Shown in pieces: positions 25,017-54,752 of a stretch of 64,000 nt of DNA. Both the position numbers and the translations under genes were made by a program. The notes under the pieces were generated by a model that saw only the letters and a program-made list of their open reading frames with translations, made no database searches and was not told the origin of the DNA. Source of the DNA: a virus. The stretch is taken from IMG/VR virus record IMGVR_UViG_3300046167_000870. The stretch is one strand, 5' to 3'. Position 1 is the stretch's first letter. Every line of letters begins with the position of its first letter.

Positions 25017-25526
25017 CTATTTTTTCCATTTATCGCGACCTACTAAAAGACCGATTATTCCATAATTGGCAATGTCAATAAATGTGTCTTCCATACCTTC
25101 ACCTTTAACAAATGATCTACCATTAATTAATAGGTTTTTAAGACGTGAAATTTTATCTGTAAGTCTAATACATAATCCAGTAAGTGAAAATGTTTTATCC
25201 TCTTTATTATTAAGGATATCTCCACCTAATGCTATATTATTTAAACCATAATCCATATGTTTGCGAGCAAACATTTCATACATTTCTTCTTGAATTTGTT
25301 TAAATTCTTTAGATAATTCAGGATATTCTTCTTCAAAAATAGTAATTGTTTGATTTATTTCATCTTCAATAAATCCTTTTATTTTTTTATTTTTTCCGTA
25401 TTTTGAATTCATAATTTCTCTATCGCTCATAGCTTTTGATTGTTGAACAGCATTAGCAGCAAAATGGCCTCCGCTGTTGATTCTTTCTTCTAAAGTCTCC
25501 ATGTATTTTTTAACTGAATCACCCAT
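25017..25526 (-). CDS. DUF1599 (nucleotide-modification-associated, MazG-like fold) protein
   Basis: KHMDYG...RLTDKISRL...EDTFIDIANYGII. Confidence 0.75.
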   Translation of the reverse strand: MGDSVKKYMETLEERINSGGHFAANAVQQSKAMSDREIMNSKYGKNKKIKGFIEDEINQTITIFEEEYPELSKEFKQIQEEMYEMFARKHMDYGLNNIALGGDILNNKEDKTFSLTGLCIRLTDKISRLKNLLINGRSFVKGEGMEDTFIDIANYGIIGLLVGRDKWKK

Positions 25527-27618: not shown

Positions 27619-29271
<1,653 letters not shown>

Positions 29272-30001: not shown

Positions 30002-30424
30002 TTATTTAATTTTAATTGATTTTGGTTTAGCTTCTTCAGCTAATGGTATAAAAATTTCTAATAGACCATTTGTTAAAACTGCATCAGTTTGTCCTAAATC
30101 AAATTTAGGGGCAATTTTGTATCTTAAATCAAATGATTTTTTAGACAAACCATTATGAATAGTTCCTTCATGGAATTTTTCATCTTCTGGTTTCTTATAA
30201 CTGATTTTTAATATATCTCCTTCGATATCAAGGACAACGTCTTTTTTAGTTAGTCCTGTACAGGCAACTTCAAAATAAAGCCCTTTATCGTCAAAGAAAA
30301 TATTAAGTGGGTGTGGTTGTTTTGTATCTGAAGCTGGTTGAAATGTGCTATCAGATTTAAAGTGGTTTCTAAAAAGAATGTCGAAAGGACTTAAATGCCT
30401 TTCCAATAATTGTAATGTACTCAT
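30002..30424 (-). CDS. Small heat-shock protein (Hsp20/IbpA-like)
   Basis: alpha-crystallin motifs; AVLTNGLLEIFIP, C-terminal KPKSIKIK. Confidence 0.9.
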   Translation of the reverse strand: MSTLQLLERHLSPFDILFRNHFKSDSTFQPASDTKQPHPLNIFFDDKGLYFEVACTGLTKKDVVLDIEGDILKISYKKPEDEKFHEGTIHNGLSKKSFDLRYKIAPKFDLGQTDAVLTNGLLEIFIPLAEEAKPKSIKIK

Positions 30425-31050: not shown

Positions 31051-31765
31051 TTCTTGCTATATAATAGACGCTTTCTATGTCGTCTGAGTTAAACGTTAAT
31101 TTTATCATTCCTTTATTTGATAATTTTAAATTACCTTTACTCATATCTTTATTTGAGTTAAGTATTGATTTGAAAATATCTGAATCAAATGGGATGGATA
31201 AATTATCTTCTTTAATATCACCATTTAATTGATATGTTATTTTATTTGAAAATCCGGTGTTATCACCAAATACAAATTCACATATATTATTACCGTCAAA
31301 ATCTTGTGTTGTTGTAATTAACATATTATTGACATCAGATAATGCGTTTTTTGCTTTAATTAAATGGTCAACATCTTCCATTTGTAAGTCAATATCAATT
31401 TCCCATGTTTCAGGATCTTCATACCATGTTGTTTTGCCTAAAATTAAAATATCAGCTAATGAATATGTTAAATCAAAATTTAAATCTGCGATATGCATTT
31501 TAGTATACACTGATTTAATTTTTTCTAATGATAAAGATAATTCACCACTAGTAATAGATAACAGTTTTGATAATTTATCAGTATCAAATATACCTAATTC
31601 ACTATCTTCGATATCAAAATCATTTAGATGTACCTTACATACTCTACCTTTTTCACCAGCATATATTGTAAGTGCTTTATCTTTAATTCTCCATTTAACC
31701 TGATTATTTAATCCATTTAAATAATACTTTGCTATAACACTTTGTAAAACATTTTTACTTATCAT
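31043..31765 (-). CDS. Sliding clamp (T4 gp45/PCNA-like)
   Basis: 240 aa, GIFD..KLLS, C-terminal GMIKLTF..SVYYIAR; context with polB and clamp loader. Confidence 0.75.
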   Translation of the reverse strand: MISKNVLQSVIAKYYLNGLNNQVKWRIKDKALTIYAGEKGRVCKVHLNDFDIEDSELGIFDTDKLSKLLSITSGELSLSLEKIKSVYTKMHIADLNFDLTYSLADILILGKTTWYEDPETWEIDIDLQMEDVDHLIKAKNALSDVNNMLITTTQDFDGNNICEFVFGDNTGFSNKITYQLNGDIKEDNLSIPFDSDIFKSILNSNKDMSKGNLKLSNKGMIKLTFNSDDIESVYYIARNE

Positions 31766-32664
31766 ATAATAATATTTTTATTTCTAATTTTATCACTTGG
31801 ACTAACACCATTTTCACATCTACCACACATATCAAATGTAGATAAAGGTGCAGGCATTATATCATCATATTCGTCAACGAATAAATTACCTAATATTTTT
31901 TCTAAACTATAATCCATACAACATAATGAAACATCTCCGTTAGGCAAAACAACATTATGATAAAGGTGTTCAATACAACCACAAGTACTAGGTCCTTTTT
32001 TAGGTGCATGGTTAACTCTATCTTTAATTTTATCTAATGCTGGTTTAATAGTTGCTTCACCTACTAAATTACCTGCTCTATCCCAAAAATTAGGTATAAC
32101 AGGATTAGGCCATAATTCTTTTACACAGTCATGAGGTTCACCCATACTCATTACATAAAATGCTTGAATATCATTTTCATATTCTTTAAATTTTTCAAAT
32201 ACTTTATATAACCTATCACTTAAGGGATGTTCAGCTATTCGTTCAGCATCTGGGATATGTAAACAAAATCCACCATTTGGTCCTTTAGTCCAAGGTATAT
32301 CTTTAACTGCTTCAACATCATCTAATGTCATTCCTACTCCTGTTGAAAATGCAGATAAAGGGTGTCCTTTGTAGTTAGCATACTGCATCATTTTAGTACA
32401 TTCTTTATTTAACCAAGGTTCAGTAAACCCAGAAAATGTAACTCTTACTTCTTTAGGTAATTTATCTACAATTTGAATAAATCTAGCTAGTGATAAGGTT
32501 TTAGGTTGACCCTTGTGAGCATGATAAATTTTCTCTAAAGTTCTTTGAGGGCAAAAGGCACAATTTACAACACAACCCTTAGGCGAAATAGAAGTTGTAA
32601 ATTCCATAGTAGGCCATTTTGTTGTTTTCCAGTAATCTCTCTTCTTAAATTCCATATTATTCAA
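31762..32664 (-). CDS. Radical SAM protein with SPASM/twitch domain
   Basis: CVVNCAFC (CxxxCxxC), FSGFTEP, VLPNGDVSLCCMD, CGRC. Confidence 0.85.
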   Translation of the reverse strand: MNNMEFKKRDYWKTTKWPTMEFTTSISPKGCVVNCAFCPQRTLEKIYHAHKGQPKTLSLARFIQIVDKLPKEVRVTFSGFTEPWLNKECTKMMQYANYKGHPLSAFSTGVGMTLDDVEAVKDIPWTKGPNGGFCLHIPDAERIAEHPLSDRLYKVFEKFKEYENDIQAFYVMSMGEPHDCVKELWPNPVIPNFWDRAGNLVGEATIKPALDKIKDRVNHAPKKGPSTCGCIEHLYHNVVLPNGDVSLCCMDYSLEKILGNLFVDEYDDIMPAPLSTFDMCGRCENGVSPSDKIRNKNIII

Positions 32665-32679
32665 TATACGTAAGTTTTT

Positions 32680-33615
32680 TTAAATTTCAAAGGAAGATAA
32701 TGCATTTATATGAGGGTTTAAATCTAAACTCCATTCTAAATCGTTAAAAAATCCTTCTAATTTGTTTAATAAAATTGATTCAAATACTTTTTGTCTGTCA
32801 GCATAAATATCAAGGAAATCTTGAATTTTTGATGGCATGTCATAATCAAAGAATGCTAATGCTTCTATTTTATATGGGTTATCTTTTAAATAAATCCATT
32901 TTACTTTATCGGCTTGAGTAATTAAGTTATGTTTTCTATCTAAACTCCATAATCTTAATAAATCATTATATCGAATTGCTGCTCTAACTGGTGCTGGAGC
33001 TCCTTTTAATATTTCAGTAAACATTTCACCTGCTCTTGCTTTAGTACCAGAGTACTTATCTAACTTTTTTACTGATGTTGGGTTGCCTAGTTTTGTTAGT
33101 GGAATATCACCTCCTAATATCTGTTTTTTAAATACTTTAATTTGTTCTAATACACTATCTTTCTGTTCACCCTTTAATACTTGTTGTAAAATATCATTGA
33201 AGAAATCTCCTAATATAGGTGGGAAATTTGCTTTCATAAATTCTAAACCTTTAATATCTAAAGATTCTTTTTCAATACCTTCTTGCTTAGTAATCCATTG
33301 AGCATAACGTCTAGTAGCTCTAAAATAGGCTGAACGAATAACACATTCTGTTTTCATTTCTAACCTATGTTCAGTTACATTAAATGCTTCACGAGCTAAT
33401 CTATCATAATCATCATTTATAATATCTTGATATTTAAGTGCTACTTTTTCTAAAATATCATCTTTTTTCTTATCATCAAAAGATTCAAAATCAGGATACA
33501 AATATTTTAGTATAGGTTCAGCATTAAAATAATTTGAATCAGTGTCTACATAAGCACAATAATTAACATCATCCTTATCACAAATCCACCAAGGAGTATC
33601 TTCTATATGTTTCAT
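32680..33615 (-). CDS. Family B DNA polymerase, C-terminal part (motif C and thumb)
   Basis: YVDTDS, RRYA, KGLEF. Confidence 0.9.
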   Translation of the reverse strand: MKHIEDTPWWICDKDDVNYCAYVDTDSNYFNAEPILKYLYPDFESFDDKKKDDILEKVALKYQDIINDDYDRLAREAFNVTEHRLEMKTECVIRSAYFRATRRYAQWITKQEGIEKESLDIKGLEFMKANFPPILGDFFNDILQQVLKGEQKDSVLEQIKVFKKQILGGDIPLTKLGNPTSVKKLDKYSGTKARAGEMFTEILKGAPAPVRAAIRYNDLLRLWSLDRKHNLITQADKVKWIYLKDNPYKIEALAFFDYDMPSKIQDFLDIYADRQKVFESILLNKLEGFFNDLEWSLDLNPHINALSSFEI

Positions 33616-33980
33616 CTATATTCTTTTATATCTTTAAAATTTGAACCTGAAATGATATTAATATCATTTTTTAATTGATTTCTAACTTCATTATATTCAA
33701 ATATCATTAATGATGCTTTCCTAAATTCTTTATCTGTAATACTTTTATCTCTAACTCTGTTTTCCAGATCCCATAACATACGATTTACTTTTGACAACTC
33801 CAAAAATAATACCTTAATTTCTTTACCATTTTTAGTAAATAAATCTACAACACCTGGATTTAGACTTGCAAATTCTAATTCTACATTAGCTAAATTCTCA
33901 GGATCCACCATATTCAATTTTTTAATTTCTAAAATTGAAATTCTATCTAGTAATTCACCATTTGATACTTCTATTTTCAT
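33612..33980 (-). CDS. Hypothetical phage protein (DUF6165-like)
   Basis: SNGELLDRISILEIK..LWDLE..NEVR..K..IN. Confidence 0.7.
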   Translation of the reverse strand: MKIEVSNGELLDRISILEIKKLNMVDPENLANVELEFASLNPGVVDLFTKNGKEIKVLFLELSKVNRMLWDLENRVRDKSITDKEFRKASLMIFEYNEVRNQLKNDINIISGSNFKDIKEYR

Positions 33981-33981
33981 T

Positions 33982-34248
33982 TTAAAATGTGCGTTCCCCA
34001 GGTAATTTGGGTACTGTTTGTGGTTTTTCTCCTTTTGAGTTAATATCTTCTCTTTCTTTTAAATCAATCTTATAAGTAACACCTTTTATTTTAAATCTAA
34101 ATACTCCTTGTTTTAAACATTTTCGGAACATTTTTTCTTGATTTTCAGACCAGGTTTCACTTACTTTAATTAGCTCATCCTTTGTAATTAGTTCATTGTC
34201 TGCATAAACTGTCATGTTGTTTCTTATAGATTGTTTTTTTAATGTCAT
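33982..34248 (-). CDS. Hypothetical protein
   Basis: Overlaps the polB N-part stop (ATGA coupling). Confidence 0.65.
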   Translation of the reverse strand: MTLKKQSIRNNMTVYADNELITKDELIKVSETWSENQEKMFRKCLKQGVFRFKIKGVTYKIDLKEREDINSKGEKPQTVPKLPGERTF

Positions 34249-35946
34249 ATTTGTAGTTTGATTTTGTTTTTAATTACTTTATTCATATGCCTATTGGCAC
34301 ATAAAGCACTTTCTTGAATAATTCTTTGACCTGATAATGTAATAGCTTCTGATAATATTACGTTACCATATCTAAAACTACCTAATGCTGTTGCTCCATA
34401 TAAACTATTAAGCAAAATTTTCATTGTGTATTGCATTAAATGATTATATTCACCTGCTTCTGTATCTCCAGCTTTATAAGCTTTTTTCATACGTCCTTTA
34501 TAAATAACACGCTCTTCAAACCATTTCTTAAGAATAGTAGATAATACTGATTCTCTATCTGTTTCAAAAAATACACCATTAGCTGAAATAGCTAAATTAT
34601 TTTCTTCAATCATTTGAATTAGTTTCTTAACAGGAACATAAGCTTGTCTTCGGTGTTTGTTTTCTACTAATAATTCTTCTTCAGGATCACGTTCTTTTAA
34701 ATCGTTAAGTGCCAATCTATTATTACGGTCATCTGAATCTATGATGCGACCCTTGAGTGTTTCTTTACCTATGTTAATTGACATTATTATAGATGGATAC
34801 AGTGATGTTAAATCTTCATCAAACATATACTTGTATAGTCCTGCTTTGGGGCAAAAAAGGTAACCACCAGCATAATTCTTTTTATGAATTGGATGTTCAT
34901 CTCTTCTTGGTGGTATAATATTTTTACTTAATAAGTAAGCTGAAATCGCTCCATCTTGTGATACTGTATTAGCATATACTTCACTATAATTGTGCTTACC
35001 TTTATGTGATAGGTTTTTAGTTAAAGCAATATATTGTAATTTTTCATCTAATTTTTGAAGTATTTCAACATCAACAAAGTTATATTGAATAAATTTATGG
35101 ATATCAGTTTCAAATAATTGATCTAAATTACCTTCATATTCAACCTTACCCATACCAACATACTTTTCTCCAATAGCATCTAATTTCCAGCTTGGTTCAT
35201 CTTTCCAGCTATATTTTTTATGTAAACGAATATAATCAAGTGATTCAACTCCTACAATTTCTACAAATTGATTACGCTTATACCAATATTGATTACCCTT
35301 TTTACAATTTACTACTCCAATAGGTGATAAATGTTTAGCAAAATCCTCTCCAATAGTATTACACATTCTATAATACAAATAAGGAATATCAAAATAATCT
35401 GAATTATAACCAATTAAAATATCTGGATCGATATCTCTGATATGCTCAATAAATTTACCTAATAATTCATTTTCTGTTCTACAAGGTATAATTTCTTTGT
35501 TTTTTGCTTTAGTATGTTTAAGTTGGTTTTTCTTATCAAGAATTAAAATGTGCCAAGTATTAGGTGTTTTATCCCACCAAGCAATAGAGGTAATAGGCAT
35601 CGGGGCACTTTCAATATAATCTTCGGTCAAAGCGACCCCCGATTTCACACTCAATATCAAAAAATACTTCTCTATGACCAGTAGAAGGAGTATCATCAGT
35701 ACCATATCTTTCGATAAGGAACTTTTGATATGGTTTCATATCATGAAAATGTATATTTGAAGTATTTTTATCCCACTTATATGTTTTGCTTAGTTTTTCT
35801 CCATTAATTCCAGTAAATTCACCATCTGGATCTTCAACATAAGCTGGGTTCCACCATTCTATTTCATCGTAACCTGCTTCATCCCAAAGGTGGATTTTGA
35901 ATTTGTTTTTCCCTAAACTTTTTGCAAAACATTTTTTATAACTCAT
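34245..35946 (-). CDS. Family B DNA polymerase, N-terminal part (3'-5' exonuclease, motifs A and B), one extra base near 35634
   Basis: FDIECE, GYNSDYFD, YNFVDV, DLTSLYPSII, KILLNSLYG; removing one base joins both ORFs into 566 aa. Confidence 0.9.
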
Positions 35947-36112
35947 TTGGTCTTATCTGTGATAATATTTCCATTAATTCTTCAACTTCAAATTTACATA
36001 ACTGCCCCTCACATAAATCTTGACAACACTTGTCGGTATTAAGATAAATAAATTCTAGTGATTTATCAACCTGTTCCCATTGTTCTTTAGATAATTGTTT
36101 CGGGGTCGGCAT
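35936..36112 (-). CDS. Small hypothetical protein (58 aa, not in ORF track)
   Basis: MPTPKQLSKEQW...; fills the gap and overlaps both neighbours. Confidence 0.45.
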   Translation of the reverse strand: MPTPKQLSKEQWEQVDKSLEFIYLNTDKCCQDLCEGQLCKFEVEELMEILSQIRPNEL

Positions 36113-36662
36113 TGGGTAAACATTTTTCTATTTCATCCTGAGTAAAAAACTTACTCAAATCTGGTCTATAATAATTAATTGATTTCATTACTTTCTTATC
36201 CCTTGATCTATAGACAATGTACCGTCCTTCCTCAAGTTTCTCAAAATGGCAGGCCTCACCTTGTTCCTTACTTCTTTGGCTGACGGTGAGTATGGCCTCT
36301 TCTTCAGTTTTACAAGCTTTTGACATATTACTTCCTTGTACCTCGAGATATGCTGGCCATACCTTATCCTTAAGACCATGTAACATAGCACCGTTCCCAA
36401 GGGAAACATAAGTAATGTCGCACAAAGCGTCCAAAACTTCCACAATGTCTCCTCGTTCGCAAGCCTCTCTATATTCTTCGAGTTCTTCAAGTATAAAGTC
36501 GTAAACAAATTTCCATTCTTTTTTTTCTGGTATAGTTGGTTCATAATTATTTGGTTTGCCAAATGTGGCATTAAATGTTTCTACTTCAGAAACAAAGGGT
36601 ACTTCATTAACCCATACAGGTAGCTCTTCATCTTTAAATTTTAATTTTAGCTGCTTGCTCAT
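36087..36662 (-). CDS. MazG-like/PRA-PH nucleoside triphosphate pyrophosphohydrolase
   Basis: EELEEY, DALCDITYV, EVQGSNMSK, KVMKS. Confidence 0.85.
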   Translation of the reverse strand: MSKQLKLKFKDEELPVWVNEVPFVSEVETFNATFGKPNNYEPTIPEKKEWKFVYDFILEELEEYREACERGDIVEVLDALCDITYVSLGNGAMLHGLKDKVWPAYLEVQGSNMSKACKTEEEAILTVSQRSKEQGEACHFEKLEEGRYIVYRSRDKKVMKSINYYRPDLSKFFTQDEIEKCLPNADPETII

Positions 36663-37259
36663 AACTTTTTATTTTTTATTTTATTTTGGAATTTCATAAA
36701 TGATCCTTCTTTGTCATTTGACATACCTGCAACAAGATGAATTCCTTCTCTTTTATCAAGATCCGAAATAGCAGCATCTTGCATTTCAGCAAATTCTAAC
36801 CATTCATCACTTTTATAATATTCCTCTAATGCATCTCTTTCTTTTTTAGCATCATTAGCTAAATAATCTTGAATTGGAAGTGAATCTTTAGTTTCCCAAG
36901 GGTAAATAACCCATTCATCTCTTTCATGTAATTCAGCCCACAAATTAGGTTGAAAACAAGATGTATGTGGTTTATAATGTAATACTGCTGTATAAACTCC
37001 AGGACCTTTTTCTAATGTAACTCCAGAATCACATATATCATCAACTACTAATGTATTCTTTCCTACTGCACCTACATAAGGTAAACCTAGTTTATGTGAT
37101 ATTAATACTGCTGGAATTAATCCACCTCTGGGAATACCATGAACTGAATCTATATTAATTTGGTCGTGTCCTAATTTTGTCACATAAGTTGTTAACAAGA
37201 CCATTTACATCATCCCAACTTAAGTACATTTTGTTTTCTTCTTCGTTTACTAATGCCAT
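36659..37259 (-). CDS. Purine-type phosphoribosyltransferase, one extra base at 37170-37171
   Basis: YLSWDDV N-term (other frame), GIPRGGL, LVVDDICDSGVTL, WVIYPWE; repaired length 199 aa. Confidence 0.85.
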
Positions 37260-37262
37260 ATT

Positions 37263-37955
37263 TTATATATTATGTCCTCCGTTATTAATCTTCAGACTAT
37301 CAAAAAATTCTTTTCTTGCTAAATTATCATTTTCTCTAAATACACCTGATGCTTTAGTAGTAACCATTGCTGCTCCTTGATGTTTAACTCCTCTACAGCT
37401 AACACAATTATGTGTTCCAACTATAGTAACAATTACACCTTTATTACCTTCAGTAATTTTACATACTGCATTATGGATAGCTGATGTTAATTGTTCTTGT
37501 ATTGCTCCTCTACGACCAAATAATTCAACAATTCTATTTAATTTAGATAAACCAATTACTCTACCTTCATCACCTGCTATATAACCAATATGAACTACAC
37601 CTCCAATTGTTTGGTGGTGGTGTGAACACATTGAGGTAAGAGGAATATTTCTTTCAATAATGATTCCATCATATCCATCCGAAGGAAAGGATGTTATAGG
37701 TGACATTTCAGTATATCTACCTGCCCATAAATCATTAACATAGGCTTTAGCTACTCGCATAGGAGTATCTGCTGAATTTGGATCTTGTCTCCAATCACAT
37801 TTTAATTCATCTAAAAACAAACCAAATTTATGGGCTGCTTTTACTATCATGTCTTTTTTTTCTGCATCGCTAAAAGGAAATCCTGGTGCTACACCATTTG
37901 CATAACCTTCTTGTACAACTTCTAATTCTTGGTGAATTTTTCTTCTATTGCTCAT
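37263..37955 (-). CDS. folE: GTP cyclohydrolase I
   Basis: TPMRVAKAY, SMCSHH, GLSKLNR, IQEQLT, H.CVSCRGV. Confidence 0.95.
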   Translation of the reverse strand: MSNRRKIHQELEVVQEGYANGVAPGFPFSDAEKKDMIVKAAHKFGLFLDELKCDWRQDPNSADTPMRVAKAYVNDLWAGRYTEMSPITSFPSDGYDGIIIERNIPLTSMCSHHHQTIGGVVHIGYIAGDEGRVIGLSKLNRIVELFGRRGAIQEQLTSAIHNAVCKITEGNKGVIVTIVGTHNCVSCRGVKHQGAAMVTTKASGVFRENDNLARKEFFDSLKINNGGHNI

Positions 37956-38050
37956 TTATATAACTTTCTAATTTATCTATTAATACTAATACTTCGTCTG
38001 GTTCCATAGTAATGGCACAACAGACATTTACATTTTCTTTTATATCATCT

Positions 38051-38080
38051 AATATACGAAGGGCTTCTTGCTTATCCACT
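38051..38080 (-). promoter_or_regulatory. Class I promoter motif upstream of folE
   Basis: aatatacga...tatcc at the conserved offset. Confidence 0.6.
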
Positions 38081-38897
38081 ATACTTCTCGCTTATCTTCA
38101 AACGCAATAATATGTGGTCTCCAAGTCATTCTATAACCATTATCCCTTACCCAATCAAATAATACTGGATATGATTTAAATAAAGCTTCCCTTGAATCAC
38201 CAGCAGGCATAAACCAAACTTTTTCTGATTTAACCTCTAATTGAGCTAAACAATCCATAATTTCAGCTAATGCATCTTGATCTTTACCATCCCATACTGG
38301 TTTAATATGATAATCAGAGTGATAAGCTATTGATTGTTTAATTGCATCATAATTAAGTCTTAACTTATTATGTTGTTTTACCATTTTTTCATCTGTAACT
38401 TTTCCTTGAGGAGTAAGAGTACCAACAACGGGGACGCTATTACTAAACTTAGGAGAAATTGACAGGAGATTAATAGGATAATCAGTAGGAAGGAAATGTG
38501 ATCCTTCAGTTTCAATAGTAATGAATATATCGTTTTCATGTGCGAAGTGTGTTAATTCATTTACTAAAGCAGCATGCATAGTAGGTGAACCTCCAGTCAA
38601 CATCATTTCCTTTATATGAGGGTTTTTCTCATACATGGCAATAATATCTTTAAAGTTAAAATGACCTTTTTCTGGGTGGATACTTGTATACCAACTATCA
38701 CACCATCCACCTTCGCCAAAATAGCATCTGTGGGTGCATCCTGTTGTTCTAATAACTACTGTTGGGTATCCTGCTCTTGAGCCTTCTGATTGTACTGCAG
38801 TGTAAATTTCTACAATAGGGAGGTTTTTATCGTAATCCTCAATACGTTTCAATTGTTTGTGCATATTGTTAATTTTTTTAAGTGGTTTTTCATTCAC
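38079..38897 (-). CDS. queE: 7-carboxy-7-deazaguanine synthase
   Basis: QSEG..G.P.V.IR..GC...C(x7)CDS, LTGGSP, IETEG, SISPK. Confidence 0.9.
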   Translation of the reverse strand: MNEKPLKKINNMHKQLKRIEDYDKNLPIVEIYTAVQSEGSRAGYPTVVIRTTGCTHRCYFGEGGWCDSWYTSIHPEKGHFNFKDIIAMYEKNPHIKEMMLTGGSPTMHAALVNELTHFAHENDIFITIETEGSHFLPTDYPINLLSISPKFSNSVPVVGTLTPQGKVTDEKMVKQHNKLRLNYDAIKQSIAYHSDYHIKPVWDGKDQDALAEIMDCLAQLEVKSEKVWFMPAGDSREALFKSYPVLFDWVRDNGYRMTWRPHIIAFEDKREV

Positions 38898-38906
38898 TAT
38901 TATAAC

Positions 38907-39371
38907 TTATTCGCTGTAATAAGCAGCGTTTTTACCGTGTTCTGCAAACTTAACTTTAATAACTCTTACTCTGTTATCAGTTTCAGTTTTAACAAAATCA
39001 TTTAATTTGTGATAAATATATTCAGCAAATTTCTCTGCGCCAGTAGCTGGAATTACTCTTACTTGTGCTACACCTGCTTTGTCCATTTGTTGAAATGCTT
39101 TTAATTCAGGATCATCTTCTGCTATAATCATAGTATGATCAAACATATAATCCATCCATGCTTTAGGAGATTTACCATCAATTAGAGTTTTAGCTCTTTT
39201 CATTCCACCAAAATCCCAAACCCAATTCCTTTCATCTAATTCACCTTCAAAATATACTTTAAAGGAAATACCATAACCATGTACAAATCTACAGTGTGTT
39301 GTTGTTGCTTTCCATTGACGAAACACTGTACTAAAACCGTCAAATACTTTACTTGATTGAAATTTACCCAT
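38907..39371 (-). CDS. queD: 6-carboxy-5,6,7,8-tetrahydropterin synthase
   Basis: CRFVHGY, VWDFG, FDH, GAEKFA. Confidence 0.9.
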   Translation of the reverse strand: MGKFQSSKVFDGFSTVFRQWKATTTHCRFVHGYGISFKVYFEGELDERNWVWDFGGMKRAKTLIDGKSPKAWMDYMFDHTMIIAEDDPELKAFQQMDKAGVAQVRVIPATGAEKFAEYIYHKLNDFVKTETDNRVRVIKVKFAEHGKNAAYYSE

Positions 39372-39612
39372 TATACCAATTTAATATGTCTTCCCTTGAC
39401 TGATTACCAACTGTTCTCTTTATCTCATTATTACTATCATCTACTTTAATTAAAGTTGGGACTGATCTAACAGAATAATGAGCTGCTTTTTCCATATCAT
39501 TGTCAATATTTACTTTATGAATAGGAATTTCTAAACTTAACTTGTCCATTACTGGACCTAGTGCTTTACAAGGTCCACACCAAGGAGCTGTAAAATAAAT
39601 AATTTTTGCCAT
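39364..39612 (-). CDS. Thioredoxin
   Basis: WCGPC active site, SVPT. Confidence 0.9.
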   Translation of the reverse strand: MAKIIYFTAPWCGPCKALGPVMDKLSLEIPIHKVNIDNDMEKAAHYSVRSVPTLIKVDDSNNEIKRTVGNQSREDILNWYNG

Positions 39613-39662
39613 GTTTTCTAATTTATTATTATACTAAATATACGAAACTTATTTCTAATTTC

Positions 39663-39854
39663 CTAATTACTTCCATTTTCTTTATAATCTATAAAAAATC
39701 CAATTGCTACTATTAAATTCATTCCTATGGATGCCCCAATTTCTACTAAATCGTGAAAATTATGGATAGATAAATGGATATGTCCTACAACCCAAAAAGG
39801 AATTGCTAAATTTTGACTAATCCAAATTATAAGAAATTTTAAAAAACTTTTCAT
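39663..39854 (-). CDS. Small membrane protein (63 aa)
   Basis: Start MKSFLK after tRNA-Gln; two hydrophobic segments. Confidence 0.55.
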   Translation of the reverse strand: MKSFLKFLIIWISQNLAIPFWVVGHIHLSIHNFHDLVEIGASIGMNLIVAIGFFIDYKENGSN

Positions 39855-39867
39855 ATTATAACTTTTG

Positions 39868-39940
39868 TTGTCCCTACAGGGGTCGAACCTATACTCTTCT
39901 GGACCAAAACCAGACGTGTTGCCAATTACACCAAGGGACA
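39868..39940 (-). tRNA. tRNA-Gln(UUG)
   Basis: TGTCCCT/AGGGACA acceptor stem, TCTGG-TTTTGGT-CCAGA anticodon arm, GTTCGA T-loop; no encoded CCA. Confidence 0.93.
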
Positions 39941-39943
39941 CTG

Positions 39944-40017
39944 TGGAGAATATCGGAGTCGAACCGATGACCTCCTGCGTGCAAGGCAGGCGCTCTAGCC
40001 AGCTGAGCTAATTCCCC
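39944..40017 (-). tRNA. tRNA-Ala(UGC)
   Basis: GGGGAAT/ATTCTCC with G3:U70, CCTGC-CTTGCAC-GCAGG anticodon arm, GTTCGA; no encoded CCA. Confidence 0.95.
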
Positions 40018-40023
40018 TACCCT

Positions 40024-40164
40024 TTAGACGTTTCTCCATCTACGTCTATCAGACCATTGTACTTTTTTGGTCTGACCTAACATAGCTAATCTACTTACTT
40101 TCTGATTGAAAGCATTTCTGTCTTGATTTAACTGTGTGTTACCGTTTTGTTGTTCGTTGTTCAT
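40024..40164 (-). CDS. 46-aa peptide upstream of tRNA-Ala (not in ORF track)
   Basis: MNNEQQNGNTQLNQ...WSDRRRWRNV; fills the queC-tRNA gap. Confidence 0.45.
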   Translation of the reverse strand: MNNEQQNGNTQLNQDRNAFNQKVSRLAMLGQTKKVQWSDRRRWRNV

Positions 40165-40199
40165 TACTAGATTGTTAAATTATAATTACATATATGTTA

Positions 40200-41045
40200 C
40201 TATACGTATTCAGCAAGCACTTTTTCGACATGAGATTTTGCTACTTCATAATCAACTACTCCAGTTTCATCTGCATAACCAACAGGATCAGGTCTTCCTA
40301 ATTTAATAAATGCTTCAATACGTTCAACACTAGAAGCTGATTTATAATCACTGTACCATTCGTATGCATTAGTTTCAGGTCTACTATAAACTTTAAGTGG
40401 TTTATAAGAAGTGTTAGTTCTAGAATAAACTTCATCAAAATCAATACCTAAAATTTCACATAACTTTTCTCCATCCTGTAGGATACCAAATTTATCAGTA
40501 TCTAAATAAGGTGTAAAGTAACCTACTCTATCTGCATCCCAATTTCCAATTCTAAAAGCTGCATCATCTGCATCTCTAAATTCTTGTCTACAATCAGGGT
40601 AAACTGCATGATCACCAGCATGGATACCTAAAGCAATATCACAAACATCTTCTGTTCTATTTGCTACAGATAATGCTACTGCTTGAGTAATTGAAGCAAA
40701 CATTTTGTTTCTATTAGGAACAACTGTTTCTTTCATATTATCTTGTTCATAATGTCCTTCTGGTACATCATCTCCTCCTTGAACTAAAGCTGAATCTAGT
40801 AAATCTACTAATCCATCTAGTTTAATTTGACGATAATTAACTGTACAACCATTAAAACAATTTTCATCTACTGGGCAGATTTTATTGATATAATCAACTA
40901 ATTGTTGAGCTCTTTCTAGCTCTACTCTATGCTTTTGACCATAGTCAAAAGATATAGCTGTTACAGAATCATACTTTTCGATAGCTCTTAACAATAGGGT
41001 GCTGCTATCCATTCCACCACTTAAACTAACTACACAATGTGCCAT
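40200..41045 (-). CDS. queC: 7-cyano-7-deazaguanine synthase
   Basis: SGGMDS, FDYGQKH..E, VVPNRN, YPDCR. Confidence 0.93.
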   Translation of the reverse strand: MAHCVVSLSGGMDSSTLLLRAIEKYDSVTAISFDYGQKHRVELERAQQLVDYINKICPVDENCFNGCTVNYRQIKLDGLVDLLDSALVQGGDDVPEGHYEQDNMKETVVPNRNKMFASITQAVALSVANRTEDVCDIALGIHAGDHAVYPDCRQEFRDADDAAFRIGNWDADRVGYFTPYLDTDKFGILQDGEKLCEILGIDFDEVYSRTNTSYKPLKVYSRPETNAYEWYSDYKSASSVERIEAFIKLGRPDPVGYADETGVVDYEVAKSHVEKVLAEYV

Positions 41046-41048
41046 AAT

Positions 41049-41234
41049 TTATTTATTTAATTTTTGCCAGGTATTTTGCGTATAGGCTAACGCTTGTTTA
41101 AATTTACATTTTATATATAATCGAACATACGAAAATATAGTGGATATTCCTACCCCTCCTAAAAGAAGTGTCCAAATATTTGGATGAAAGTGCTCTCCAC
41201 AAAGCCCTAATGCGTGTTTTATTACTTCTGCCAT
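41049..41234 (-). CDS. Small membrane protein
   Basis: HALGLCGEHFHP followed by a TM segment. Confidence 0.55.
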   Translation of the reverse strand: MAEVIKHALGLCGEHFHPNIWTLLLGGVGISTIFSYVRLYIKCKFKQALAYTQNTWQKLNK

Positions 41235-41235
41235 A

Positions 41236-41433
41236 TTAGTCGTTTTCTTTAAATTCTACGTCACCGTAATCATCAATCGGTTTATCTCTTACCAGGTCCC
41301 AATCTGCATCATCTATAATTTCTTGTTGAAGGTCTTCATCACCTGTTTTCCATTTTGCTAGTTCTTCTTCTGTTAAGATATATTCTTCCCATCTGAAGTT
41401 GCAATAATTTACTGTTCTTGTTAATTTAGCCAT
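41236..41433 (-). CDS. Hypothetical acidic protein
   Basis: Packed ORF. Confidence 0.55.
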   Translation of the reverse strand: MAKLTRTVNYCNFRWEEYILTEEELAKWKTGDEDLQQEIIDDADWDLVRDKPIDDYGDVEFKEND

Positions 41434-42229
41434 AATGTTTAATTTTCTCTATATTATTTATTTCTCTAAAAACTGTTGTATTATGAATTATATTTAAATA
41501 ATCAACATCTTTAAAGTCAATATCAAAATAATCATTCATATTTGCTTTTGGTTTATTATTTAAACCGTGCTCTTTATATAAAGTATCTTCTAACCCTGCC
41601 ATTACTGGGTTTGAAGTGTCTATTGTTTCTATTCTAGGATCATTATCATACCAACCAAATTCTTGTGGTATTGCACATCCTAATAAATGAAACTTAATAT
41701 CCTTTAATTGATCTAATTTAAGTAAACCCTGTACAAATCGTACTCTACCTAATGCTTTTCCCATATCTACATTACTGTGTGGAAAGAAATCATTATACCA
41801 AGTAGCACCATATGATACACATAATTTTTTATATCCTAACCCATGTAATAGGTTGGCACATAAATATGCTTGGTTTTTATTTTCTCCCTGAATTACTGCA
41901 GTTATTTTTGTATTTTTATGATATTTAAATTGTCTCCAATATTTAGCTTGAGCTGCTGTTTGAGCACAATTCATCCAAACATCTGGGACTATAAATTCAT
42001 TTGGTTGTAATTCTGTTACCCAGTGACGCAATCTATCATAATCATATGCTTCACCTAATTCATGAAGTGAATTATCCATTATAACATACCTACCTTTATC
42101 TCTAGCATCAATAAAATATTGAAGATATTCTTCATCTTGATCTAGTAGATGAGGTAAACAATAATCATAATCATTAAATTCTATTGAGGATGTTAATAAA
42201 CATCGAGGTACTTCATGGCTTACTTTCAT
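41426..42229 (-). CDS. TGT-fold protein, probable DpdA-type 7-deazaguanine transglycosylase
   Basis: MDNS, PD, VIQG, HLLG, IDTS in the order of TGT catalytic motifs; next to queC. Confidence 0.7.
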   Translation of the reverse strand: MKVSHEVPRCLLTSSIEFNDYDYCLPHLLDQDEEYLQYFIDARDKGRYVIMDNSLHELGEAYDYDRLRHWVTELQPNEFIVPDVWMNCAQTAAQAKYWRQFKYHKNTKITAVIQGENKNQAYLCANLLHGLGYKKLCVSYGATWYNDFFPHSNVDMGKALGRVRFVQGLLKLDQLKDIKFHLLGCAIPQEFGWYDNDPRIETIDTSNPVMAGLEDTLYKEHGLNNKPKANMNDYFDIDFKDVDYLNIIHNTTVFREINNIEKIKHYG

Positions 42230-42738
42230 ATACTTAATTTTTTAGGTCGTCCTCTACGCTTTAATGGATAAGGCATGTGAACTATTTTATACTTTTCTTC
42301 AATAATATAATAAAGATCTATCAGGGTACCACTACATTTTAACATTTCTTCTTCAACTTGTTCTCTATTGCATTTGAAATATTTGGTAAATTCAACTGTT
42401 AGGGAACGTAATCTTTCATTTTCATCTTTTTCAAAATCCTCAATCAAACGTTTTCTTCGAGCTCTGATAACTGATGTTTTTTCCAAATATTTTTGGTAGT
42501 CAATACCACATTCTTCTAAAATATCATTCAATTGATATTCAACTTGATATTGTTGTGCTTTATAACATGAATAGTCAAAATCACCATTCAATATTCTATC
42601 ACGAAGTGGTTTGCGATTATCAAGCGGTTTATTCTTTGGTTGATAACTTCTCCACCATCTAAATTGATTGTAATTTATTTTTTGATATTTAGAGAGTTCT
42701 TTCTCTACCTGTTTCCTAGTTAATGGTATCTTAAACAT
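42226..42738 (-). CDS. Hypothetical protein, C-terminal RRGRPKK
   Basis: Packed ORF. Confidence 0.65.
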   Translation of the reverse strand: MFKIPLTRKQVEKELSKYQKINYNQFRWWRSYQPKNKPLDNRKPLRDRILNGDFDYSCYKAQQYQVEYQLNDILEECGIDYQKYLEKTSVIRARRKRLIEDFEKDENERLRSLTVEFTKYFKCNREQVEEEMLKCSGTLIDLYYIIEEKYKIVHMPYPLKRRGRPKKLSI

Positions 42739-49748: not shown

Positions 49749-49999
49749 GATATTTCTTCTTCTTTTTCTTCTTTCTTAGGAGGTATTACTATTGTTTTAG
49801 AAATTACAATAGTATCTTTAGAAGCCGCTGGTGGGTTAATTCTTTGTTCCATTATAGGTTGTTCTACAACATCTTCTTTAGGTTCAAATATTGATTGCAT
49901 ATTAGCTATTAATAATCCAAAGGCTGCTGTTATAACTAATCCTATACCTGTTACTACTTGGTTTTTGATTTCCGAAAAAAATCCTTTATTTTCACTCAT
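49742..49999 (-). CDS. Single-TM protein
   Basis: N-terminal TM; DTIVISKTIV stalk. Confidence 0.65.
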   Translation of the reverse strand: MSENKGFFSEIKNQVVTGIGLVITAAFGLLIANMQSIFEPKEDVVEQPIMEQRINPPAASKDTIVISKTIVIPPKKEEKEEEISW

Positions 50000-50730
50000 T
50001 TTTTAATTATTTTAAATGTTTTAACAAATCTACCATTACTTACTTGTAATAAATAAATTGCAGATGCTAAGTCTGATAAATCCATTTGGAATGAAACGTA
50101 ACCACTAAAAAATTCCCTTGTAGTTGATTTCATTAATGTTCCGTTATACGTAATTACTCTTATTGTATAAGAACCATTATCCGGTACTGTTAATTCAAAT
50201 GTTAATGGACCTTTTACTGGGACAGGATATACTATACCATAAATGCCATCTGCTGGTTGTGTATCAAATGGAAGAGACATTTTATTAACATATCCATCTG
50301 TGTTATCAACATCAATATCCCACCCTAAATCTGTACCTGCTGTTTTTCTTCCTATGGTAATTGGTATTTCAGTCCAATTTTGATCAATAACTTTAAATCT
50401 TACTGTAAATAACTCAGTTGTATTACTTATAGTAAAGTTACCAAAAGAGGCATCATAACCTCCCCATCTTACTGTTTCACCTTCCCAATCCTGTGTATAT
50501 GTTAACCATTCTTGTGCCTTAGCTGTTACAGTAATTTCCTCAAATTCTAAATATTGAGAATCAAATTCTAAAGCAAATTCTAAACTTCCAACTGTTTCTC
50601 CTGATGTTTCAATTTCTACAGGTAAATTAATATATTCACTAACAGGAACCTCAATCTCAGGTACGTTAAATACGACCTGAGAATGAGCTACTGTTGTTAT
50701 GGTTAGTAAAAATATTAATAGTTGTTTCAT
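49996..50730 (-). CDS. Cohesin-like domain + T9SS (Por) C-terminal sorting domain
   Basis: Signal peptide; LPVEI..VGSLEFALEFDSQYLEF; IVYPVP...DLSDLASAIYLLQV...KTFKIIKK. Confidence 0.8.
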   Translation of the reverse strand: MKQLLIFLLTITTVAHSQVVFNVPEIEVPVSEYINLPVEIETSGETVGSLEFALEFDSQYLEFEEITVTAKAQEWLTYTQDWEGETVRWGGYDASFGNFTISNTTELFTVRFKVIDQNWTEIPITIGRKTAGTDLGWDIDVDNTDGYVNKMSLPFDTQPADGIYGIVYPVPVKGPLTFELTVPDNGSYTIRVITYNGTLMKSTTREFFSGYVSFQMDLSDLASAIYLLQVSNGRFVKTFKIIKK

Positions 50731-53038: not shown

Positions 53039-54751
53039 TTATCCATCACAGCTGATGCAATCTGCCATTCTAGATCCTAAATCACCTTTGATTACTGAAT
53101 CAGTTCGTAGGTAATATAAAGTTTTTACACCTAATTTCCAAGCTTCCATATGAACCTGATTAATCCATTTAGGAGAATCATTAGGGTCAAATGATAAGTT
53201 TAAAGATTGAGTTTGATCTATATATTTTTGTCTTTCAGCTGCTTGTTTTACTAATTCTAATTGATTTGTTTCTGAGAAGGTTAAAAATACTTCTTTTTCT
53301 TCTGCAGATAGTATATTATCTGGTAAACCTAATACTGATCCACCTTCTTGTAGCATTTGATCCCACCATTTAGTTTTATTTTGTCCTTTTTCTTCAAGTA
53401 ATGCTTCTAATACTTTATTTTTTCTAATAAAAGTACCTTTAGCACCATTAAAAGTATAAACATTAGCAGGTAGGGGTTCAATTCCTGCACTAATACCACC
53501 ACAAATAACAGAATTTGATACTGTTGGGGCTACTGCTAATAAGTGAGTATTTCTCATACCAGTTCCTCTACACCATAATGGTTCTCCATATTCAGCTGCT
53601 AAATTCATAGATGCTGATTCTGCTTTACTTCTAATTTTATTAAAAATATTTCTAGTATGAACTGTAGATGCTACAGAATTAAATGGTAATCCTTTTTGTT
53701 GAAGGAAAGTATGCCATCCCATTACACCTAAACCTAAAGCTCTACCTTTAGCTGCATGTTTATGAGTTCGTTTTAAACTTTCTTTACCATTTGATTTATC
53801 AATAAATTCTTGCATTACACCATCTAAAAACCAAATTGCAGTCTCAATACAATCTGTGTCTTTATATTCTTCCCACTTAGCTAAATTAAGAGAAGATAAA
53901 CAACAAATAAATGAGTGTTCTTCATCTGTAAATAATGTAATTTCAGAACAAATGTTAGTCATAGAAACATCTAAATTATGCATTCTATAAGCTATAGGGT
54001 TATTTTTATTTACATTATCCTTGTACATAATGTAAGGTTCACCTGTTTCCATTCTTGATTTTAAAACAGTAGCCCATCTATTCATTGCTTCTGGGTCTCT
54101 TGCTTCTAATTTCCTCATAAATGAATCTCCTACAACAACACATTGATGTAAGTTTAAACATTGTCTATTTGGATCACCCTTCGGTCTACGAATTTGCATA
54201 AATTCTTCAATATCACCATGTTCAATATCTAAATTAACTGATGCTGCTCCTCTTCTTACATTTCCTTGATTAGTTGCAATAATTGATGAATCATAAATTT
54301 TAGCCCAAGGTACTACACCTTCACTCTTACCATTACCTGAAATATATTCTCCACGTTGTCTAATACGAGATAACGAAATACCTACACCTCCGCCGGATGC
54401 TGTTAATTTCATTAGTTCTGCGTTAGTTAAACCGATTCCACGTATTGAATCTGGCGTATCAATACCAAAACATGATATTGGTAAACCTCTATCAGTTCCC
54501 ATATTTGATATAACAGGAGATGCTAATCCAATCCAACCATTCCAAATATATTTAAAGAATTTATTTGCTAATTCTGGTTTTTTTAGTCTAGCTGCTGAAG
54601 CATTTGCTACTCTTTTATATGCTGTTCTTACAGTTTCTCCAGGTAGTAAATAACCTTTTGAAATTGTTGCTAAAGAAATTTCATCCATCCATATTGGGTA
54701 TTGCTTTCCAGCTTCCCAATTACTATAATCTACTTGTAAGTTATTATCCAT
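53039..54751 (-). CDS. nrdA: Class I ribonucleotide reductase alpha subunit
   Basis: PISCF, TNICSEI, APT.SNS, TLYY.R, C-terminal CISC; likely start MDNNLQ. Confidence 0.95.
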   Translation of the reverse strand: MDNNLQVDYSNWEAGKQYPIWMDEISLATISKGYLLPGETVRTAYKRVANASAARLKKPELANKFFKYIWNGWIGLASPVISNMGTDRGLPISCFGIDTPDSIRGIGLTNAELMKLTASGGGVGISLSRIRQRGEYISGNGKSEGVVPWAKIYDSSIIATNQGNVRRGAASVNLDIEHGDIEEFMQIRRPKGDPNRQCLNLHQCVVVGDSFMRKLEARDPEAMNRWATVLKSRMETGEPYIMYKDNVNKNNPIAYRMHNLDVSMTNICSEITLFTDEEHSFICCLSSLNLAKWEEYKDTDCIETAIWFLDGVMQEFIDKSNGKESLKRTHKHAAKGRALGLGVMGWHTFLQQKGLPFNSVASTVHTRNIFNKIRSKAESASMNLAAEYGEPLWCRGTGMRNTHLLAVAPTVSNSVICGGISAGIEPLPANVYTFNGAKGTFIRKNKVLEALLEEKGQNKTKWWDQMLQEGGSVLGLPDNILSAEEKEVFLTFSETNQLELVKQAAERQKYIDQTQSLNLSFDPNDSPKWINQVHMEAWKLGVKTLYYLRTDSVIKGDLGSRMADCISCDG

Positions 54752-54752
54752 A

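Follow-up and report, generated by a model that had tools for sequence, protein, structure and literature searches.

A guanine-type phosphoribosyltransferase is a conserved partner of FolE and a MazG-like enzyme in marine phages with a predicted DpdA3-type 7-deazaguanine pathway

Introduction

How does a phage replace every guanine in its genome? Among viruses, complete exchange of guanine for a 7-deazaguanine is known only from the phages that encode DpdA3, and the route by which they achieve it is still a proposal. Replacement was complete in the three DpdA3 phages tested by Cui, Hutinet et al. (PMC10516641): the Campylobacter phage CP220 (Firehammervirus) carries dADG, the Cellulophaga phage phiST carries dDG, and the Flavobacterium phage immuto carries fdPreQ1. 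A post-replicative mechanism was proposed, and the activity of DpdA3 could not be shown in E. coli (PMC10516641). Here we analyse a 64,000-nucleotide stretch of DNA, IMG/VR record IMGVR_UViG_3300046167_000870 (the window, by which we mean that whole stretch), from a large, uncultured phage of an abundant marine group. Its minus strand encodes, from 42229 down to 34245, a DpdA3-like protein related to tRNA-guanine transglycosylase (TGT), two small open reading frames (ORFs), QueC, tRNA-Ala, tRNA-Gln, thioredoxin, QueD, QueE, FolE, a phosphoribosyltransferase (PRTase), a MazG-like nucleoside triphosphate (NTP) pyrophosphohydrolase and a family B DNA polymerase (PolB). An earlier note on this DNA, made from the sequence alone, had listed this gene order correctly; every gene that it listed was found, all on the minus strand. 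Our concern is with the PRTase.

The window phage, like immuto, falls among the phages of probable or known Bacteroidota hosts. The two share DpdA3 (34% identical), QueD, QueE, FolE, QueC, a PRTase lacking the flexible catalytic loop (53%) and the MazG-like enzyme (gp63 in immuto, 74%). Unlike immuto, the window has no detected homologue of QueF, DpdN or Tmk, and it has a split PolB where immuto has PolA. The gene order is FolE-PRTase-MazG in the window and PRTase-FolE...MazG-DpdA3 in immuto, and the end product, fdPreQ1 in immuto, is predicted to be dPreQ0 or dADG in the window phage. CP220, in which replacement is complete, encodes the DpdA3 that is closest to the window protein among cultured phages (gp056, 37.5% identity), but it lacks a PRTase as well as a MazG-like enzyme of the window's family; a trimeric dUTPase is among its products, and its DpdA3 gene is flanked by genes for an HD+kinase fusion and a P-loop kinase. 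The dDG system of phiST consists of FolE, QueD, QueE, DpdL, DpdA3 and the MazG/dUTPase-like CGPG_00068. It shares with the window a DpdA3 (24%), a Gpt-like PRTase and an all-alpha NTP pyrophosphohydrolase near the polymerase. Unlike that of the window, the phiST PRTase has the flexible loop and is encoded approximately 17-21 kb from the DpdA3 and que genes, beside a dNMP-kinase-like gene and NrdA; phiST is also without QueC, and its MazG-like protein is not detectably of the window's family.

Other phages replace a base before replication, T4 by means of a dCTPase, dCMP hydroxymethylase and dNMP kinase, and cyanophage S-2L by means of PurZ, DatZ and MazZ. As in those systems, an all-alpha NTP pyrophosphohydrolase is encoded in the window beside a modified-base pathway and a phage polymerase. 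Unlike those systems, the window retains DpdA3, which is of the post-replicative type, no modified-nucleotide kinase was found in it, and its hydrolase is only a candidate for destroying a canonical dNTP. A further comparison is provided by the tubercidin and toyocamycin proteins TubE and ToyH, purine-PRTase homologues that are encoded with homologues of FolE, QueD and QueE, and which we liken to the window protein by their description (PMC6112128). Unlike the window genes, they belong to Streptomyces secondary-metabolite clusters that contain no DpdA or TGT (PMC6112128). TubE and ToyH are a chemical precedent (PMC6112128) for the PRTase step at the head of the earlier note, the making of preQ0 ribonucleotide; in the note's scheme the MazG-like enzyme would remove dGTP. 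The same note gave, as its alternative, that the PRTase salvages excised guanine, and that is the better-supported reading of what follows.

Results

With the PRTase as query, IMG/VR yielded 202 relatives; 80 loci were fetched, in which most absences of a gene are due to contig ends. The PRTase gene has the MazG-like gene immediately after it in 78 of the 80 loci and FolE before it in 73, and PolB comes next in 67. When all fetched loci containing both FolE and the MazG-like gene are counted (101 loci, a few contigs having been fetched twice), 91 encode the loop-less Gpt-like PRTase and 10 encode an Hpt-type hypoxanthine-guanine phosphoribosyltransferase (HGPRT); no locus has both and no locus has neither. 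A sister clade in which neither profile nor tblastn searches detected the loop-less PRTase has, in the slot beside FolE, an Hpt-type HGPRT that matches solved HGPRTs along its whole length (E 4.6e-29 to 3acb). Within this marine group, a guanine-type PRTase is an obligatory and previously unremarked part of the module. The DpdA3-type gene set was already known; the present analysis adds the count of loci in which the Hpt type takes the place of the loop-less PRTase. Two unrelated guanine-type PRTase families have thus come to occupy a single slot, which is most simply explained if selection has acted on their ancestral activity, the conversion of guanine and phosphoribosyl pyrophosphate (PRPP) to GMP. 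The idea that the PRTase is dispensable, for which the sister clade (e.g., the 163.6-kb genome G006) was the candidate, was rejected when a Pfam search revealed the Hpt-type HGPRT in the same slot. We found no mention of the PRTase in the literature searched, and no phosphoribosyltransferase is mentioned in PMC10516641.

The association extends beyond gene neighbourhood in one clade. FolE and the PRTase are also adjacent in immuto and in an unrelated Brevundimonas siphovirus, which encodes in order QueE, a DpdA3-like protein, a DNA polymerase, NrdBA, a dNMP kinase, FolE and the PRTase, and PRTase-FolE fusion proteins exist (P0123, P0124). Together with the FolE/MazG synteny, these cases argue that the PRTase belongs to the 7-deazaguanine pathway. 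The earlier note was right to connect the PRTase and the MazG-like enzyme functionally with the 7-deazaguanine genes: conservation of this link is very strong, and a PRTase is present at every one of the 101 FolE + MazG loci. DpdA3 is likewise encoded by all near-complete relatives that were searched with its profile or have both genes within the fetched locus. In G001, a complete relative, the profile search placed it 31 kb away from the PRTase; in G003 the distance is 20 kb, and in G006, G013, G014 and G015 DpdA3 and the PRTase are both within the fetched locus. Relatives that seemed to have the PRTase and MazG-like genes but no DpdA3 were discounted, since the DpdA3 genes missing from the flanks lay 20-31 kb off and the remaining records are fragments. 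The Brevundimonas phage, vB_BpoS-MaInes (L087, ON529866.1, 1-9900), has an alphaproteobacterial host, and it also encodes QueC; its DpdA3-like protein is recognised by hhalign at 91%, and its PRTase is a loop-containing, xanthine-type enzyme. This seems to be a DpdA3-like deazaguanine phage that has yet to be described, with a host beyond those known so far.

What might the PRTase act upon? Its profile matches 1vdm (P. horikoshii PH0095) at E 1.2e-18, and also S. solfataricus HGXPRT and E. coli xanthine-guanine phosphoribosyltransferase (XGPRT, Gpt); with the structural model as query, Foldseek retrieved 1vdm at E 9.8e-10. The phage protein shares with these three cellular enzymes the fold, the PRPP motif, and the purine-binding Lys and Trp. 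When aligned with E. coli Gpt, the pyrophosphate loop, the acidic pair, the N7-proximal Asp, the phosphate loop, the Lys and the stacking Trp are all invariant in the phage family, in which the conserved motifs read RGGL, DD..D.G.T, Lys, Trp and PW. Residues K96, W116 and D77 (numbering of the relative P0001) are invariant and align with the corresponding residues of E. coli Gpt; from XGPRT structures we take them to be the purine-binding Lys, the stacking Trp and the N7-proximal Asp, respectively. The residues of XGPRT that contact PRPP, the ribose, and O6 and N7 of the base, and those that stack on the base, are thus all invariant. Unlike the cellular 6-oxopurine PRTases, the enzymes of the window clade and of immuto are missing the flexible catalytic loop, a hairpin of approximately 30 residues between the second strand and the PRPP motif, which is kept in phiST, the Brevundimonas phage MaInes and E. 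coli Gpt. The window subclade differs further in having a variable, poorly modelled helical tail of approximately 65 amino acids at the C-terminus (36659-36860), and many relatives of 128-135 amino acids are without it. The tail ends in a conserved NDKEGSFMKFQNK-like motif and may be an interaction peptide. Judged by its motifs and modelled fold, the protein is most likely a 6-oxopurine (guanine) phosphoribosyltransferase.

From the gene identities, folds, motifs, synteny and phyletic patterns, we infer the substrates, the direction of flux and the modification of DNA in this phage as follows. On balance we think it probable, from sequence comparison, that the region is a DpdA3-type 7-deazaguanine DNA-hypermodification module in which the PRTase recycles expelled guanine into the pathway. 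FolE, QueD, QueE and QueC would convert GTP to 7-cyano-7-deazaguanine (preQ0) or its amide precursor ADG, and DpdA3, perhaps brought to the DNA by the AT-hook protein orf170, would exchange guanine in DNA for preQ0 or ADG. The PRTase would turn the guanine expelled by DpdA3 into GMP, which host kinases would return to GTP, the substrate of the adjacent FolE, closing a guanine cycle. The MazG-like NTP pyrophosphohydrolase would serve the adjacent polymerase, by dUTP clean-up or by dGTP trimming. A genome of approximately 165 kb at 31% GC has, by our estimate, on the order of 50,000 guanines per genome copy. Each modified guanine would cost one GTP beyond the dGTP used for replication, which could account for the strict retention of the PRTase.

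The features of the window on which this reading is built, all on the minus strand, are:

42226..42738, minus strand: orf170, a basic AT-hook-like protein (from its translation; no Pfam or PHROG match)
41426..42229, minus strand: DpdA3-type transglycosylase, 267 aa (homology to the DpdA3 proteins of immuto, CP220 and phiST, and TGT fold)
41049..41433, minus strand: two small ORFs of 65 and 61 aa in the DpdA3-QueC interval (ORF list)
40200..41045, minus strand: QueC, 7-cyano-7-deazaguanine synthase family (Pfam QueC, E 1.5e-36, 126 bits; PHROG QueC-like)
39943-40017, minus strand: tRNA-Ala(TGC) (ARAGORN)
39867-39940, minus strand: tRNA-Gln(TTG) (ARAGORN)
39364..39612, minus strand: thioredoxin (Pfam Thioredoxin, E 7.6e-17)
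38907..39371, minus strand: QueD, 6-carboxytetrahydropterin synthase family (Pfam PTPS, E 2.4e-14, 54 bits; PHROG QueD-like, E 2.3e-40)
38079..38897, minus strand: QueE, radical SAM 7-carboxy-7-deazaguanine synthase (PHROG QueE-like, E 2.6e-53; 78.5% DNA identity to immuto QueE)
37263..37955, minus strand: FolE, GTP cyclohydrolase I (Pfam GTP_cyclohydroI, E 5.6e-41, 140 bits)
36659..37259, minus strand: loop-less Gpt/XGPRT-like purine PRTase, 199 aa after removal of one base (Pfam Pribosyltran, PF00156)
36087..36662, minus strand: MazG/PRA-PH-like all-alpha NTP pyrophosphohydrolase (Pfam PRA-PH, E 3.2e-10; PHROG nucleotide pyrophosphohydrolase, E 6.4e-28)
34245..35946, minus strand: family B polymerase, N-terminal part, 566 aa after removal of one base (Pfam DNA_pol_B and DNA_pol_B_exo1)
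32680..33615, minus strand: family B polymerase, C-terminal part (Pfam divDNApol, positions 397-540)
53039-54787, minus strand: NrdA, class I ribonucleotide reductase (Pfam Ribonuc_red_lgC, E 1.1e-99)
54753-55739, minus strand: NrdB, class I ribonucleotide reductase (Pfam Ribonuc_red_sm, E 3.9e-62)

Two of these genes are damaged in the record. An extra base at 37170 shifts the PRTase frame, and an extra base at 35635, within a run of five C, breaks that of PolB. The PRTase ORF that opens at 37204 is truncated, and a start codon at 37259 restores the N-terminus found in all relatives; removal of the base at 37170 then gives a protein of 199 amino acids, 197 of which are identical in the intact relative P0001. 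Removal of the base at 35635 gives a PolB ORF of 566 amino acids (34245-35946), which corresponds to a single ORF of 569-598 amino acids in relatives. Since both extra bases are absent from contigs of four public runs, the probable source sample among them, two of the contigs being otherwise identical to the record and a third having one differing base, the insertions are errors of the record and both genes are intact in nature; a pseudogene or programmed frameshift is ruled out on the same ground. DNA that is nearly identical occurs in 14 public runs, which come from 6 marine and viral metagenome studies.

All four preQ0 families, FolE, QueD, QueE and QueC, are present in the window, as divergent phage versions, because the NCBIfam equivalog cut-offs are not reached (the QueE models score below cut-off). 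Homologues of QueF, DpdN and Tmk were not found in the 64-kb window, in searches that did not include DpdL and DpdM, and QueF was also not found in the complete 168-kb relative G001. The observation in the earlier note that no queF is visible therefore holds for the window and for G001 alike. A pathway that stops at QueC, with no QueF, is in keeping with the note's prediction of dPreQ0 or dADG, and given the lack of QueF, DpdN and Tmk in the window and of QueF in G001, one or other of these is a fair prediction for the end product.

The DpdA3 of the window is 34% identical (E 7e-54) to the immuto DpdA, which is named DpdA3 in PMC10516641. It has no Pfam match, and a profile hidden Markov model (HMM) search against PDB sequences returned nothing significant, so that its kinship with TGT is visible by fold comparison only: with the AlphaFold2 model (pLDDT 92.4) as query, Foldseek found TGT (2pot, E 5.5e-7) and the bacterial DNA preQ0 insertase DpdA (7ui4, E 4.5e-6), both at probability 1.0. 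The DNS, HLLG and DTSNP motifs are invariant in the family, including D52 of DNS and D204 of IDTSNP, and hhalign, at low probability, paired IDTSNP with FDCVMP and HLLGC with YLMGVG of E. coli Tgt, a weak alignment with active-site motifs of TGT. The catalytic aspartates of TGT are the nucleophile of its FDCV motif and the Asp of its DSGG motif. The TGT zinc site is absent because the protein stops directly after the barrel and has no cysteines there. On this evidence from homology and modelling, the TGT-like gene encodes a DpdA3-type 7-deazaguanine transglycosylase, whose exchange activity is predicted. Relatives were detected with the DpdA3 profile on at least 560 viral contigs of IMG/VR, and the family comprises 1580 representative clusters at E<=1e-10. 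In some metagenomic proteins DpdA3 is fused to a DpdN-type formyltransferase, and GIY-YIG/NUMOD homing-endonuclease genes adjoin, or read through into, DpdA3 in other sequences (the cases of both kinds are P0152, P0220, P0132 and L085 8380-8952). These fusion partners, considered as a clue to whether DpdA3 acts on DNA or on nucleotides, proved uninformative.

The stop codon of orf170 overlaps the start of DpdA3. The protein that it encodes has a pI of approximately 9 and a C-terminal AT-hook-like motif, KRRGRPKK. Of the 21 related loci inspected, 13 have, immediately upstream of DpdA3, an ORF whose C-terminus carries a conserved RGRP motif; the AT-hook ORF adjoins DpdA3 in 67 of 79 loci. orf170 is a candidate DNA-binding partner of DpdA3, and the translational coupling of the AT-hook protein with DpdA3 in most relatives weakly favours DNA as the DpdA3 substrate. 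On the other side of DpdA3, the 61-aa ORF is conserved, and among the 80 related loci orf61 was found in 25 and orf65 in 13.

FolE and the PRTase gene are 3 nt apart, the PRTase stop codon overlaps the start of the MazG-like gene, and PolB begins approximately 140 nt further downstream. The position of the PRTase and MazG-like genes directly upstream of PolB, as given in the earlier note, was confirmed, and the phage NrdAB is present in the window, 11-13 kb upstream of the cluster. FolE, the PRTase and PolB, and not DpdA3 and QueC, are the genes that the MazG-like gene accompanies in the window clade. The MazG-like protein scores 40.7 bits against PRA-PH, for which the cut-off is 21.3 bits, and the atlas clusters are PRA-PH; a profile HMM search of the family against PDB sequences gave no significant match. 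Its metal-binding motifs EELEE (EExxE) and LDALCD (D..D) are invariant, and the protein continues into an additional, conserved C-terminal domain. Longer fusion forms were sought, with one uninformative match as the only result. More distant homologues occur in phages without nearby deazaguanine genes, for instance Tenacibaculum phage PTm1 and jumbo phages. No trimeric dUTPase was found in G001, G006, G012-G015, immuto or phiST, and no dimeric dUTPase in G001, immuto or phiST, whereas CP220 has a trimeric enzyme. Because these relatives, immuto and phiST have no trimeric dUTPase, a dUTP-cleaning role is possible, and to judge from sequence the MazG-like enzyme may either clean up dUTP or trim dGTP.

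PolB is truly split into an N-terminal part, containing the exonuclease and the start of the palm, and a C-terminal part at 32680-33615. Two small ORFs separate the halves (33612-33980, DUF4254/DUF6165, and 33982-34248). The C-terminal part is downstream of the N-terminal part in 59 of the 80 loci, and the spacing between them varies in relatives from approximately 1.7 to 5.6 kb, which suggests mobile insertions. A radical SAM/SPASM gene (31762-32664) lies directly downstream of the C-terminal part. Nothing homologous to the kinases of immuto or CP220 turned up in the window, and there was no match to the DNMK, Tmk or Gmk families in G001; searches of relatives for dNMP, thymidylate and guanylate kinases, and for dimeric dUTPase, were negative or marginal. 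Host kinases could supply these steps.

Discussion

Several observations weigh against guanine recycling in a post-replicative module. Complete replacement of a base is otherwise typical of pre-replicative pathways. The PRTase, being without the flexible catalytic loop of type I PRTases, could be a poor or altered catalyst. DpdA3 is acidic (pI approximately 5.3-6.1) and has neither the zinc nor the C-terminal domains of TGT and bacterial DpdA, and the MazG-like gene is the most conserved of the cluster (74-88% identity), more so than a house-cleaning enzyme would need to be. The action of DpdA3 on DNA has never been demonstrated, the authors' tests in E. coli having been unsuccessful, and cells infected by CP220 were reported to contain the ADG nucleoside in their cytoplasm (PMC10516641). 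TubE, a purine-PRTase homologue, is specific for 7-carboxy-7-deazaguanine (CDG) (PMC6112128).

Might guanine instead be replaced before replication? We consider this unlikely, though worth serious thought, whether the loop-less PRTase builds a deazaguanine nucleotide or DpdA3 swaps the base on dGMP supplied by the MazG-like enzyme. If the PRTase were to join preQ0, ADG or CDG to PRPP, a kinase, NrdAB and PolB would follow, the MazG-like enzyme would destroy dGTP, and DpdA3 would mop up residual guanine. TubE shows that a CDG-specific PRTase can arise in a FolE/QueD/QueE pathway, a modified-dGTP route was earlier proposed for the Campylobacter phages, and the DpdA3 phages do replace 100% of G; the tight packing of FolE, PRTase and MazG-like genes before PolB, with NrdAB in the window, would suit such a route, and deletion of the loop might make room for a C7 substituent. 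It is difficult, however, to reconcile this with the two mutually exclusive 6-oxopurine PRTase families, both guanine-type, that alternate in the slot, or with the invariance of the N7-contact Asp and the other guanine-binding residues of XGPRT whatever the final base (the preQ0 clade, fdPreQ1 in immuto, dDG in phiST). The near-complete relatives that were examined keep DpdA3, searches of the window and G001 revealed no kinase of the guanylate, thymidylate or dNMP type that could phosphorylate a modified nucleotide, and a ribonucleotide path would load RNA with the analogue too. Moreover, because CP220 reaches 100% dADG without a PRTase, the PRTase route is not the general cause of full replacement. 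The PRTase route with which the earlier note led is thus not favoured, and we rate it as improbable.

We give a similarly low probability to an exchange on free nucleotides, in which the MazG-like enzyme converts dGTP to dGMP, DpdA3 swaps the base, kinases produce the triphosphate for PolB, and the PRTase recycles the guanine. This would explain the 100% replacement, the failed assays on E. coli DNA and the cytoplasmic ADG nucleoside, and it would suit a DpdA3 that consists of an acidic TIM barrel alone and has none of the parts with which TGT and DpdA bind nucleic acids. The T4 dCTPase and the S-2L MazZ are precedents for its logic, and an NTP hydrolase and/or P-loop kinase is encoded near DpdA3 in immuto (MazG-like and Tmk), CP220 (the HD+kinase fusion and a kinase) and phiST (the MazG/dUTPase-like gene). 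On the other hand, RNA repair is an equally possible role for the CP220 fusion, activity on mononucleotides is not known for any member of the TGT family, searches of the window and G001 gave no dNMP kinase, and in this clade it is the AT-hook protein that is translationally coupled to DpdA3, while the MazG-like gene keeps company with FolE, the PRTase and PolB. Very improbable, in our view, is that the PRTase and MazG-like enzyme are generic genes of nucleotide metabolism, placed in the replication region and not specifically connected with deazaguanine. Salvage genes often gather in phage replication modules, and PTm1 and the jumbo phages have distant MazG-like homologues without deazaguanine genes nearby, but a PRTase at all 101 FolE + MazG loci, its adjacency to FolE in independent lineages and its fusion to FolE in some proteins speak for a specific association, and by tblastn the loop-less type occurs in cultured phages almost only alongside DpdA3-like or que genes.

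If the PRTase does recycle guanine expelled by DpdA3, this would explain how the phage pays one GTP for each modified base; if it makes deazaguanine nucleotides, the accepted post-replicative model falls. The culturable relative immuto makes the role of the PRTase directly testable.

The host of the window phage is probably a member of the Bacteroidota, because one of the phage's proteins has a sorting domain for type IX secretion and its nearest cultured relatives infect Flavobacterium and Cellulophaga. The phage genes include those for a cohesin-domain protein with a C-terminal type IX secretion sorting signal and for the chaperones GroEL and Hsp20 (27619-29268, 30002-30424, 49996-50730). 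A block of approximately 23 kb (732-23782 and 25017-25526) contains glycosyltransferases of families GT2, GT4, GT25 and GT1, three 2OG-Fe(II) oxygenases, and sugar-nucleotide genes for a UDP-glucose dehydrogenase, an epimerase/dehydratase and a cytidylyltransferase-like/mannose-6-phosphate-isomerase-domain protein. In the same region, a DUF1599 'nucleotide modification associated domain 1' protein adjoins a PD-(D/E)XK nuclease. The glycosyltransferase/oxygenase block may serve surface-glycan synthesis or, alternatively, constitute a second system of DNA modification. Over the whole window, palindromes that contain G are depleted: the observed to expected ratio is 0.61 for CATG (z -7.2), 0.71 for GATC and 0.78 for TGCA, ACATGT is found 0 times against 12 expected, and AT-only 4-mers are close to expectation. 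Such depletion is odd if the phage shields every guanine, and it may be inherited or otherwise caused.

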